From the NCBI GenBank assembly GCA_050293845.1, contig JBNKNM010000203.1, forward strand, positions 1-10,129: a stretch of 10,129 nt of DNA, written 5' to 3'. This stretch comes from Pseudobacteriovorax sp. (GTDB lineage: Bacteria > Bdellovibrionota_B > Oligoflexia > Oligoflexales > Oligoflexaceae). Under the pieces are notes generated by a model. It saw nothing but the letters and a program-made list of their open reading frames with translations, searched no databases and was not told where the DNA came from. How positions within the stretch are numbered: the first letter of the stretch is position 1; each line of letters starts with the position of its first letter. Shown here piece by piece: positions 1-4,000 of this stretch. The position numbers were made by a program, and so were the translations under genes.

Positions 1-1023
1 ATCGCTATTAGTATCATAAAAAGACAGCTTGGAAGGTTTGGCGGCTCCAATACCCATTTCACCAATAAACTCAGTCAATGATTCGTTTTCTGCGTACTTA
101 GCATCATATATATAATTGCTAAAATAGTCATATTCAAATTCAATTTTTGGCTCTTGTGCACCGCTAGCAAATGTTTTGGTTATAGCTGTCAAAAAATTGG
201 TGTAATGTAGGTCTGGTACCTCATAATCAATGGAATATGTCCAACGAGACTTAAAATCGCCTTGATCCATTTGCTGGAAATCGATAGATTTTACAACTCG
301 ATCTAAAACGACATTATGCCCCGACCGATAGTTGGAAGTTTGCCTTGTTTCAGGTAGTTGATCGTATGTATATACGAGTCTATTATAAAAATTCGTTCCC
401 CGACCGGCAAACCTTATGCTATCGATGAAATAATTCCCGCTATCATTTTGAACATAGTCCACTACTGTTTCAAAACCTTCACGATTTACAGCTTTTACTA
501 ATACCCATTGAAAGACGGTATCCTGTTTTCCCAAGATAGCTACGGAAAAATACATAGTAGAATAATCTGGAAATTTAACAATTAAATCCTTGTTTTCTGC
601 AAGTTCTATTCTAATAGCTGCTTTTAACCCATGGGAATAATATGCCCCATCATCTCCCAGAACGAAGCGACCCCATGGGGTCGCAAGTTCGTCCGAGGAA
701 GTAAAGGTGAGGTCTGATTTAGGGTTGGTACGGTGAATCTGATAAGCGGATTTCCAACCGATACCGTATTCACTGATCCCGTTTTCAGGAGAGTAAACGG
801 GGAAGGGATTGAATAGTAAAGGTCCAAAGGATTGATCCACGCTCATTCCGCTTGGGTGAGAGAATGAACCTTGGGTTAAATCTGATCCCTCAGCTTGAAA
901 TGAATGGAAAGTACCTCCCACTCCCCCCGCAATGGGCGGCTTAATTTTAATTGGTTGGTAGTCAATATCTGCCAGAACTATTTGTGTAAAAAATAACAAG
1001 CTAAGGCTTAGAAGCTTTTTCAT
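1..1023 (-). CDS. N-terminal 341 aa of a secreted SpvB/TcB(TcaC)-N-terminal-domain protein, probably an RHS/YD-shell toxin (3' end outside window)
   Basis: Not in the ORF track; hand-translated. ATG at 1023 overlaps the upstream TGA (ATGA), with an AGGAG RBS, and there is no stop down to base 1. It begins MKKLLSLSLLFFTQIVLA|DID (Sec signal peptide). Motifs occur in SpvB/TcB order: YSPENGISEYGIGW (795-754; cf. YNSGxGNGxFGLGW), WVLVKAVNREGFETVVDY, FIDSIRFAG, SNYRSGHNVVLDRVVKSI (cf. SxYRxGFEVRTxRxC), LTAITKT...EPKIEFEY, then FYDTNSD (start of an FG-GAP/VCBS-like repeat). Confidence 0.88.
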   Translation of the reverse strand, partial: MKKLLSLSLLFFTQIVLADIDYQPIKIKPPIAGGVGGTFHSFQAEGSDLTQGSFSHPSGMSVDQSFGPLLFNPFPVYSPENGISEYGIGWKSAYQIHRTNPKSDLTFTSSDELATPWGRFVLGDDGAYYSHGLKAAIRIELAENKDLIVKFPDYSTMYFSVAILGKQDTVFQWVLVKAVNREGFETVVDYVQNDSGNYFIDSIRFAGRGTNFYNRLVYTYDQLPETRQTSNYRSGHNVVLDRVVKSIDFQQMDQGDFKSRWTYSIDYEVPDLHYTNFLTAITKTFASGAQEPKIEFEYDYFSNYIYDAKYAENESLTEFIGEMGIGAAKPSKLSFYDTNSD

Positions 1024-4000
1024 AGGGCATACTCCTGCATCAATGTTGGATTAGTTGAAGATCCGCAGCTCCTTGGCCAGGTAATATCTCCTGTGGATTC
1101 AAAAGCGACCTTATATACAAACAAAATATCGGAAAAATTTTCTCTATAGCAGTCAAAGCAAAGATATCCTAATGCTTCCCCTAAACCTCTCACTTGAGAA
1201 AGCTTATTGGTTGTGAAGGGAGATAAGCCTATTCCTGTATTATCTGCATAGCTCTTCGAATTTAATAGGTCTACTGAACGGCCTAAAAACGGTTCTTTAA
1301 TGAACCCCACTCCCAAAGCTTTATTCGTAAATCTAGAATCTGTCAGGGTGTATTCCCGTGGGCCATCTTCAAAAGGAAATTCGAGCCTAGGGCCAAATTC
1401 GACCTGTACCGACATTCTTTCACTATTTAGCCCGCTAATAACATAGTCATCAATGGCATCTTGCTTGGCTACCATGACCATCATCATGTCCTTATTGACA
1501 GCTTTTATGTTCTGGCAGTTCAAGTTACCTGTCACTAAACTGTCTCGATAAAAGTCATTAATACTTGTTTCAACAGTCATCTCATCACCATCTTTGAAAA
1601 TAGTGTCCCATATTACTTTAGAACGAGATAAATCAGAAACAGGATAGCCAAGGTTATAGCCGGGGAACGAATCATAGGGATTTGGAAATCTGAGAACCAA
1701 GTATTTAGTTTGGCTAGTGCTATTATAAATCGAATCGCTATCTGAAAAATTACTTTCAATTCGATCAAGATTATCTTTTAGCCCAAGGAACAGGGAGGTA
1801 AAATCATCGCTGACATTTGTATCTATGGACTGAATTTGGTTTTTTATATCGACCAGAGCCTTCGGATAATGGAAATCAATCATCGGTAGTGCGACATATT
1901 CTGCATAATCAAGAGCATTAAAAACCATGTCAACCAGGTAGGTATTATCAAGATTAGTTAGTATATTCTGTAAGCGCAGTTGCTTTACAAAATCTAGGGT
2001 CTCCGCACTTGCGCGATCTTTTCGTAGCTGGCTTAATTTTTCAACAACGACCTCAACCTCTCGGCCTAGTTGCTTTAGTTTTGCCATACGTTCAATTTTT
2101 AGGGTCTCATTATTGAGCCAAAAGTCAAAAACATCTCTTAGTAATGGAACATCATAGAAAGAGATCCCATTAGCCAGGGCAAAATTGGCTATAATTCGTT
2201 TGTTAAGATTATTCACTTGAAGAGTTATATCTGTACCCTCATTAAGTATAGACCGTGCTTGTCTTTCCACTTCTCCTAAGGCTGCTATAAATTGCCTCAT
2301 AAGCTCTCGACCTTCGGCAGCTCCTATAGTTTTAGTTACTTTAAGGCTTAATTTATTCGATGTATCGCTATTGTTGTTGCAATCATTGACTACAAAATAG
2401 ATATCGCTATTTTGCTCAACGAAAATTTGTGTGCTGGAACCTACTACATAAACATCCTTAGTGTCTGTCAAACTAGCATTTGATCTAGGTTGCACAAATG
2501 CTAAAAGACTTCCCGCCGGAAAATCAAAAAATGGGGCTGATTCATGTCGGTAGCCAATGGTAAAATGTGCCGTCATATCGTGTCGATCTGATTCTGAAGT
2601 CGTTTCATTCGTAAATTCAGTATTGCGGTCATGGTGAGAGTCACCGTTACAAGTAGATTCTCTCACAGTACCATTAGGGATGATATCGCAAGTATCTTTT
2701 CCCGAATAAACATCATCTTCGTTTACAGAAGTTTTGCCATTTTCAACTGAGGAAACTGTTGCTGTTCCAGACGTATAGTCGATAATGAAACCTTGTGGAC
2801 CGAAAAGAGGATGAATAGGATCTGGGAATAGATCTGAATTATTGATTGCACAACTAGGCGAATAGGTTCCTGTTGTGGAAATAGTTATTAGCGATCCAGC
2901 TTCAACCTCAATTTTTTTGATATTTAAGCTTGATAGATTTTTGTTTGTACCGTCATATTTCGCGTCTGTAGCATCAACTGAAATTGGTGTATTTCCACCG
3001 ATAACATTTGAGGTGATAAAATACTCTGAAAGGATAGAACTTCGATCCTCAATCACGCGATTATACTGCTCTAAGGAATTGGTATTGTCAGCAATTGCCA
3101 TCTCAATACCTAGAATATCTTCGTTTAATGCATCACGTTCCTTTTGCGCCATTCTAATACTAGAATCAAGATTGTCAATATCACGTCCATTAGAAATAAA
3201 ATCGGAAATTTGCGTTAATAGCTCGTTTCTTTTTGTCGCATCAAAACTGTTGATGCGATTTGATAGCTCTAATGTTCTATCTGAAAGACGCCTTAATATA
3301 TTTGTTCTAAAAGAGCTATCAAATCCGGTGTAAAGATTATCAATTCCTTTTGCATTGAAAAACCCGGTGCCTTCCTTTGATTCAAGCATAAGGAAGAAAT
3401 TTTTAAATCTACTTACAAATGTTTTAGTATCGTCCGGGACATAGGTAATATCCATTCGAGAGAAATTCCCGCTTGGAAGCCAACCTTGTAGCAAGGATCT
3501 ATTATCAAAAAGAATATTTGAAATGGAAATAATAGCAGTATCAGTAAAATTTTCATTTCTAATCCCCGGTCTTAAAAACTTAGTTAATGCCAAAAGGTTC
3601 TGATAGGTTCTTGATTGACTAGGATCTGAGCATTCTTCGATGGCACAGTGAAAATCCTCGATTCTCGCTAATAGCTTTATTCTTTCATCAACTGGTTCAA
3701 GCAATACATCTATAAAAGTAAGGGAAAATTTTGAGGAAACACTAACATCAAATTGATCCGAAATCAGTTGAGCGGCCCATTCTAAATTCTGTGCAGTGGT
3801 TAGATTTTGCAATAATTTAAGATTATTCACTAAAGCTAAAAACTCACCAATAATAGATTTTGCATCGGTCTCAATGGTATTAGATGCCATTTCTTCCATG
3901 ATTAAATACCATTGGTGAATATTGTAGAAAAACCCCTGTTGATTATCATGATTGATCACATTATTTGAATCAACAATCTCGCTCATCACCCTTGAAATTG

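Follow-up and report, generated by a model that had tools for sequence, protein, structure and literature searches.

A lipoprotein with a TcA-like C-terminal fold, encoded upstream of a TcB/TcC-like Rhs cocoon gene in Pseudobacteriovorax sp., as a candidate compact A-like component

Results and Discussion

The contig JBNKNM010000203.1 of Pseudobacteriovorax sp., which was analyzed over its entire length of 10,129 bases (the window) and is part of a 6.68-Mb draft genome, carries an operon of three open reading frames (ORFs) on the minus strand in the order P0003, P0001, and P0002. The second gene encodes a lipoprotein whose C-terminal domain has, according to its structural model, the fold of the TcB-binding domain of the Tc toxin subunit TcA, and the third, judged from its family, encodes the beginning of a TcB/TcC-like Rhs cocoon protein (Table 1). 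Judged by fold, genetic context, and predicted assembly, P0001 probably works like the top of TcA, and we consider the chances to be about even that it is a compact, Sec-exported, lipid-anchored A-like subunit serving the fused TcB/TcC-like cocoon encoded downstream. This reading builds on the folds, on the genetic linkage, and on the Tc-like modules of the partner, and it is joined by a predicted self-association; docking, the order of the ring, a conduit, and the target would follow by extension.

Fold of the C-Terminal Domain

A sequence-only reading of the window had noted that positions 1020–2110, which correspond to amino acids (aa) 716–1078 of P0001, echo the pore helix and the TcB-binding domain of TcA. 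The AlphaFold2 model of P0001, based on a 77-sequence alignment (mean predicted local distance difference test, pLDDT, 82.2; predicted template modeling score, pTM, 0.66), bears out the proposed layout of a long helix, a helical bundle, and a beta-rich domain: a 64-residue helix (704–767) is followed by further helices up to residue 844 and by an alpha/beta domain (849–1054). Folded alone, aa 845–1078 yielded a model of higher confidence (67 sequences, pLDDT 91.3, pTM 0.89). When this domain was compared with the PDB using Foldseek, the top eight matches were all TcA chains (E 1.1e-3 to 7.8e-3, probability 0.89–0.99), and the next were jelly-roll capsids of picornaviruses with a probability of about 0.2. 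With the whole model as query, ranks 1–20 were all occupied by TcA (E 1e-4 to 8e-3, about 450–510 columns), and the first unrelated match appeared at E 0.056. At the level of the single chain, the fold comparison that had been suggested as a check returned TcA chains at the top and supports the proposed resemblance to the TcB-binding domain. Despite modest absolute values, the match concerns TcA exclusively, spans the whole domain, and is set apart from the background; we therefore assign the TcB-binding fold to the modeled domain.

The TcA proteins closest to P0001 are YenA2 of Yersinia entomophaga (9c4k_B) and TcdA1 of Photorhabdus luminescens. By VIA and Foldseek, residues 307..1053 of the model are collinear with TcdA1 2013..2516, which we take to be the channel plus the TcB-binding domain, and the helices with TcdA1 2013–2327. 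In the model, both spans would be of similar length once the 232-residue lectin domain described below is removed. A weak lead in the same direction came from an Atlas search with aa 640–1078, where a cluster named “Tc toxin subunit A-related” ranked fifth (score 0.85).

The sequence strings on which the first reading had relied are all present in P0001: KIERMAKLKQLGREVEVVVEKLSQLRKDRAS at aa 720–750, GIGLSPFTTNKLS at aa 1008–1020 (nucleotides 1197–1235), and FSDILFVYKVAF at aa 1041–1052 (nucleotides 1101–1136). The C-terminal TcA motif that it gave is roughly right for 117 TcA sequences, but as a sequence signal the echo of this motif in P0001 is no better than chance. In the alignment of these sequences, TcA ends in LPFEG, 31 residues, and DIILHIRYTI, and P0001 in SPF, 29 residues, and SDILFVYKVAF, with similar spacing. 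Profile–profile comparison did not pair the two motifs. What gives the echo meaning is solely the structural comparison, where the model's last strand aligns with the final residues of TcA. Within the P0001 family, a GLSPF motif at residues 1010–1014 is conserved, with G1010, P1013, and F1014 being nearly invariant.

The C-terminal domain is also predicted to associate with itself. Four copies of aa 845–1078 gave an ipSAE of 0.82 (0.74, 0.82, and 0.84 in the individual runs), compared with 0.00 for the best of three controls; contact agreement was at least 78% and partner pLDDT at least 82. In the calibration set, 20 of 30 homo-pairs of solved structure and 1 of 23 single chains attain the ipSAE mark applied here, a calibration that is only rough for four copies and an own alignment. 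The predicted interface is of the head-to-tail type, and the face formed by domain residues 2–8, 25–26, 62–71, 146–155, and 205–212 meets residues 97–107, 131–136, 158–165, and 177–187 on the opposite face of the next copy. Interfaces of this type build rings or helices, and the prediction says nothing on five-fold symmetry.

Genetic Linkage to TcB/TcC-Like Cocoons

The stop codon of P0001 and the start codon of P0002 share a 4-nt ATGA overlap, which confirms that P0001 lies directly upstream of its TcB-like partner, and an ATGA overlap also joins the stop of P0003 to the start of P0001. With such overlaps at both junctions, the three genes resemble translationally coupled genes. Signal peptides are readable in the sequences of all three products, and none of the three has a match in Pfam or NCBIfam at E ≤ 0.1 beyond chance level.

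Linkage to the downstream gene is not confined to the window. Among 12 loci examined, a P0002-family gene follows next after the P0001-family gene in 10, and in one more a gene for a P-loop protein is placed between the two, so that linkage amounts to 11/12 in all. One of the 12 loci retains only a remnant of the P0002 family of 88–100 residues. In two loci from metagenome-assembled genomes (MAGs; L026 4307–5878 and L027 3762–6401), genes for secreted P-loop proteins (GxxGxGKS, 405–523 aa) are located between the A-like gene and the cocoon gene or after them, and the window contains no such gene.

P0002 is cut at the contig end, and its 341 residues in the window have no Pfam match and are not among the PF03534 matches of the genome. 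The full-length downstream proteins, paralogues and orthologues, are 1714–1853 aa long and contain FG-GAP and RHS repeats; the SpvB score of the paralogue on contig C216 (21.5 bits) lies just below the cut-off of 22. The P0002-family profile matches the N-terminus of YenB over residues 11–106 (E 2.7e-11), the beta-propeller of TcdB2-TccC3 (E 1.1e-15, 444–650 on 497–709), and, with its C-terminal shell, Rhs/teneurin-like shells (E 2e-27). It is through its propeller that TcB is seated on TcA (PMC6795518).

The same genome contains two paralogous operons, whose P0001 counterparts are 21–23% identical to P0001 (E 1e-35 and 3.5e-33). The complete one, on contig C14, encodes a 514-aa secreted protein, a 1114-aa lipoprotein, and an 1840-aa protein, followed by a 151-aa ORF. 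Its cocoon gene (577–6099 of locus L009, minus strand) ends in an RhsA-type deoxyribonuclease domain (6xtd, E 4.6e-22). The adjacent 151-aa ORF (165–620, minus strand) could encode immunity, and ORFs of 156–169 aa occupy the place after the cocoon gene in three related loci.

At least five further giant proteins with SpvB domains (2011–2433 aa) are encoded in this genome on contigs C34, C194, C185, C129, and C237. Upstream of these five lie genes for partners that differ from one to the next, secreted proteins of 372–408 aa or a 1345-aa protein, none of which is matched by the P0001-family profile. Judging from these sequences, the partners of cocoon genes seem to come from several families that are unrelated to each other.

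Architecture of P0001 Outside the C-Terminal Domain

Between its two long helical regions, the model places a lectin-like beta-sandwich domain that was absent from the earlier reading. This domain has the beta-sandwich fold of the 121-residue PA-IL/LecA; it holds most of the invariant residues of the P0001 family, including N624, D625, and C626, and is its best conserved part. In contrast to the galactose-binding lectins PA-IL (LecA), PllA, and EclA, the domain is embedded in a 1078-aa protein, is unrecognized by Pfam, and carries a 74-residue polar insert. This insert is modeled as a long beta-hairpin with pLDDT below 50 and is of low complexity in the family profile. It was considered as the stem of a beta-barrel pore, a role that we rejected on the grounds of its highly charged and polar composition, the lack of an alternating hydrophobic pattern, and the low pLDDT.

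The helix 704–767 is followed by three more (769–796, 798–807, and 819–844), and the long helices are conserved across the family, with a length that would suffice for a conduit according to model and alignment. The coiled-coil matches extend over model residues 358..753, and helix 358–404 may accordingly pack against helix 704–753. In the N-terminal helical domain, a 27-sequence alignment shows no or hardly any variation at C31, C44, C56, C71, C204, and C209. A fold search with this domain gave generic helical-repeat matches only, and some VIA rows align aa 30–300 with helical regions of TcA; by fold, a divergent helical shell is thus possible.

P0003 has no match to a Pfam or NCBIfam family or in the Atlas. 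The family member P0006, however, is a natural fusion from another organism of a P0003-like part (aa 16–280, matching P0003 aa 10–267; BLASTP E 9e-16) and a P0001-like part (aa 330–1363, matching P0001 30–1066). This fusion argues for a physical cooperation of P0003 and P0001, and P0003 is, as far as sequences tell, probably a third structural piece. The arrangement recalls TcA, which is split in some Tc toxins and fused in others.

Comparison with Canonical TcA and Alternative Interpretations

Several results weigh against an A-like function. SepA, which served as positive control, has a length of 2371 aa and scores 174 bits with TcA_TcB_BD (PF18276), but hmmscan of P0001 against Pfam found neither this nor any other family at E ≤ 0.1. 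Likewise, the VRP1, ABC_toxin_N, and neuraminidase-like signatures, all three of which are matched by SepA, are absent from P0001 at E ≤ 0.1, and PF18276 has no match in the whole genome at E ≤ 10. Comparison of six slices of the family with 117 TcA C-termini by HHalign resulted in probabilities of 0.1–2.4%, and remained negative in local and global modes and also for the last 90 residues alone; the TcA profile of 117 sequences is shallow, with a Neff of about 2. A search of the PDB sequences with the 77-member family profile retrieved coiled-coil noise and no TcA. Further points concern the model. The TM-scores of the Foldseek matches to TcA are low, both for the C-terminal domain (0.34–0.39) and for the whole model (0.12–0.16). 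If the model is right, an insert of roughly 300 residues (lectin and helices) would occupy the position of the tip with which TcA enters the membrane. P0001 lacks such a hydrophobic tip, as it contains no hydrophobic segment outside the signal peptide. The helix 704–767, which had been described as amphipathic, does not live up to this description: its hydrophobic moment of 0.147 compares with 0.136 ± 0.070 for shuffled sequences, 40% of which reach it. Finally, we know of no canonical Tc component with a Sec signal, and the proposed role offers no account of the place and manner in which a folded 200-kDa cocoon would reach a target cell.

Consequently, P0001 is not a member of the TcA family by sequence criteria, because TcA_TcB_BD and the shell signatures are missing, HHalign is negative, a lipoprotein signal is present, and a hydrophobic tip is not. 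The profile comparison with TcA_TcB_BD that had been suggested along with the fold comparison therefore speaks against family membership, with neither Pfam nor HHalign giving a match. phmmer searches of the PDB sequences with P0001 and P0002 gave coiled-coil or chance matches only. On the other hand, a search of 131 genomes of the phylum detected canonical TcA_TcB_BD in none of them, which we count in favor of an A-like role of P0001, since no canonical alternative is nearby.

If P0001 is indeed a compact A-like subunit, a mechanism can be outlined. Sec would export all three operon products, as suggested by the signal peptides seen in their sequences, and P0001 would be lipidated at the cysteine of its lipobox and anchored to the outer membrane. 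Its C-terminal domains might then assemble head-to-tail into a ring, in line with the predicted self-association, with a stoichiometry that is presumed here. Having the fold of the TcA funnel, this ring would dock the beta-propeller of the cocoon; fold and propeller were both found, and the docking is presumed. The long helices might form a stalk with the LecA-like lectins at its far end, where they would bind a target glycan; the lectin fold is that of the model, and both geometry and ligand are conjectural. The C-terminal toxin, released by autoproteolysis, could finally exit through or along this assembly into a neighboring cell. A channel function of P0001 is only inferred.

It is conceivable, but in our opinion unlikely, that P0001 instead is a docking or anchoring adaptor without a channel, whose ring holds the cocoon at the envelope while the lectin sticks to a glycan and the toxin leaves by, e.g., lysis, vesicles, or outer-membrane exchange. 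Such a role would be in keeping with the lipobox, with a lectin as the best conserved part of the family, and with the missing hydrophobic tip. Furthermore, the TcA-specific fold evidence covers the docking domain only, as the helices match generic coiled coils equally well by VIA. However, the collinear Foldseek alignment extends well beyond the docking domain of about 190 residues, the whole model reaches an E-value about ten times better than the domain does, and helices of conduit length are conserved across the family.

An improbable alternative is that P0001 acts on the side of the producer as an export helper, a periplasm-facing lipoprotein that threads or releases the toxin across the own outer membrane. 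With Sec signals on all three proteins, these would meet in the periplasm, and in the model the lipid anchor would be situated near the docking-domain end of the protein. Moreover, proteins combining a signal peptide, SpvB, a propeller, and RHS repeats are assigned to a “TcdB/TcaC-like export pathway” in a published comparative study (PMC3482391). The lectin domain and the Ricin-B, PA14, and F5/8-C domains of longer family members point to the recognition of foreign surfaces instead. We give little credence to a convergent or coincidental likeness to TcA, in which the C-terminal domain would be a mere jelly-roll-like sandwich and P0001 a lectin adhesin or envelope protein co-transcribed with an Rhs toxin, a reading to which the missing sequence signal, TM-scores below 0.4, and the viral jelly-roll capsids as next-best matches lend some support and with which the exclusive match to TcA has to be reconciled.

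Features of the Window

The coordinates of the operon, of the domains of P0001, and of the remaining genes are summarized in Table 1. Upstream of the operon, an 86-aa ORF (5370–5630, minus strand) has a weak match to a transcription regulator (PHROG, E 2e-4). A copy with 59% identity is found on contig C237, where its neighbors are a P0003-like stretch of 42 residues and a further SpvB/Rhs gene, and the ORF may encode a regulator common to several such loci. The genes at 6684–10127 have paralogues on contigs C436, C161, C209, and C492 with 31–83% identity over the aligned parts. From these sequences, the region looks like a repeated, perhaps mobile cassette, which may account for the break of the assembly at this place.

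Table 1. Coordinates of genes and protein domains in the window.
Feature	Position	Strand	Description	Basis
P0003	4253..5329	-	358 aa, Cys-rich, signal peptide; first gene of the operon	ORF and translation
P0001	1020..4256	-	1078-aa lipoprotein, candidate compact A-like component	ORF and translation
P0002	1..1023	-	First 341 aa of TcB/TcC-like cocoon protein, signal peptide; cut at contig end	
P0001, signal peptide and lipobox	4206..4256	-	aa 1–17, LSLAAC at aa 11–16, lipidated Cys16	Read from sequence
P0001, N-terminal all-helical domain	3357..4154	-	aa 35–300, conserved cysteines	AlphaFold2 secondary structure
P0001, long helical hairpin	3045..3317	-	Helices 314–355 and 358–404	AlphaFold2 model
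P0001, LecA/PA-IL-like lectin beta-sandwich	2322..3017	-	aa 414–645	
P0001, polar insert in lectin domain	2562..2783	-	aa 492–565, 74 residues, rich in Ser/Thr/Asn/Asp, two Cys	
P0001, helical region	1725..2321	-	aa 646–844, includes 64-residue helix 704–767	AlphaFold2 model
P0001, C-terminal alpha/beta domain	1023..1724	-	aa 845–1078, ordered to 1054; TcB-binding-domain-like fold	AlphaFold2 and fold matches
HTH_3 repressor-like gene	6684–6974			
Two ORFs	7378–8232 and 8229–8564			
ORF	8553–10127		524 aa, runs off contig end	

Distribution and Significance

A word-indexed homologue search with P0001 found no relatives, but when 1.84 billion representatives were scanned in full with HMMER, 325 emerged at E ≤ 1e-3, including 228 with E ≤ 1e-10, of which 30 have E ≤ 1e-30. 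Family members are mostly 1,100–1,850 aa long. Cluster names were retrieved for ten of them: two read “hypothetical protein”, and the other eight clusters are nameless. A lipobox occurs within the first 45 residues of 69 of the 133 members starting with M, as determined with a simple regular expression. The family profile matches 7 of 41 related genomes (E ≤ 0.001) and 6 of the 131 genomes of the phylum sample (E ≤ 1e-5), and carriers include MAGs of Oligoflexus sp., Oligoflexia, Myxococcaceae, and Deltaproteobacteria. A Pfam scan of 30 members identified no core family and only accessory N-terminal domains: Ricin-B, PA14, F5/8-C, P-domain, or FG-GAP were found in 8 of the 30, and a Sel1/TPR repeat alone in 2 more, all of them longer members of the family. 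As far as can be told from sequence, such added N-terminal modules are a pattern typical of receptor-binding toxin subunits.

Compared with TcA, P0001 has no detectable sequence similarity and, with 1078 aa vs. 2371 aa in SepA, is less than half as long, as had been stated from the sequence; it differs further in its Sec/lipoprotein signal, in the LecA-like lectin between the long helices, and in the lack of a hydrophobic tip. In contrast to Tc toxins, B and C are fused here into a single protein of about 1830 aa, the toxin of the paralogous locus is an RhsA-type DNase followed by a small ORF, and the carriers are environmental MAGs of the Oligoflexia or Myxococcota type and not insect pathogens.

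The P0002 family shares its signal peptide, SpvB-like N-terminus, propeller, RHS repeats, and variable C-terminal toxin with the TcdB/TcaC-type Rhs toxins described by Zhang et al. (2012; PMC3482391), where proteins with a signal peptide, SpvB, an integrin-like propeller, and RHS repeats form a class of polymorphic toxins. The pertinent passages of that study name the toxin class and no A-like partner, whereas here a family of upstream lipoproteins is proposed as such. A second related group are the bacterial teneurin-like proteins, which according to PMC13018210 also form Rhs/YD shells enclosing a toxin, occur in social and predatory bacteria, and sometimes possess lipoprotein signals. These signals, however, are located on the shell itself, whereas in the present loci the candidate for delivery or docking is a protein of its own, encoded upstream. 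According to the same paper, teneurin-like proteins have no obvious known machinery for delivery (PMC13018210). A literature search covering titles, abstracts, and some passages retrieved no description of the P0001 family or of a compact A-like or lipoprotein partner of Rhs cocoons.

The Tc translocator is a pentamer of 1–1.4 MDa known from Enterobacterales and similar pathogens. To our knowledge, Tc toxins are the only Rhs cocoons with a known dedicated translocator that works without the type VI secretion system; for many Rhs/teneurin-like cocoons of other bacteria, no route of delivery is known. For these, the P0001 family is a testable candidate: an unannotated family of 325 representative clusters with the modeled fold of the TcA docking domain, genetically locked to TcB-like cocoons and present in a phylum of which 131 genomes were searched without a canonical TcA turning up. 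As a possible, albeit doubtful, extension, this family might be the missing delivery subunit of the widespread TcdB/TcaC-type polymorphic toxins, i.e., a minimal lipid-anchored, Sec-exported Tc-like injector with which predatory or social bacteria would deliver Rhs toxins to neighboring cells on contact, in which a TcB-binding-like ring receives the cocoon and a short helical conduit is tipped by lectins that recognize the target, and which could resemble the ancestor of the 2,500-residue TcA syringes. The family would also provide a minimal scaffold for studying how cocoons open. Should the channel reading prove right, a large class of Rhs toxins now without any delivery route would have one.

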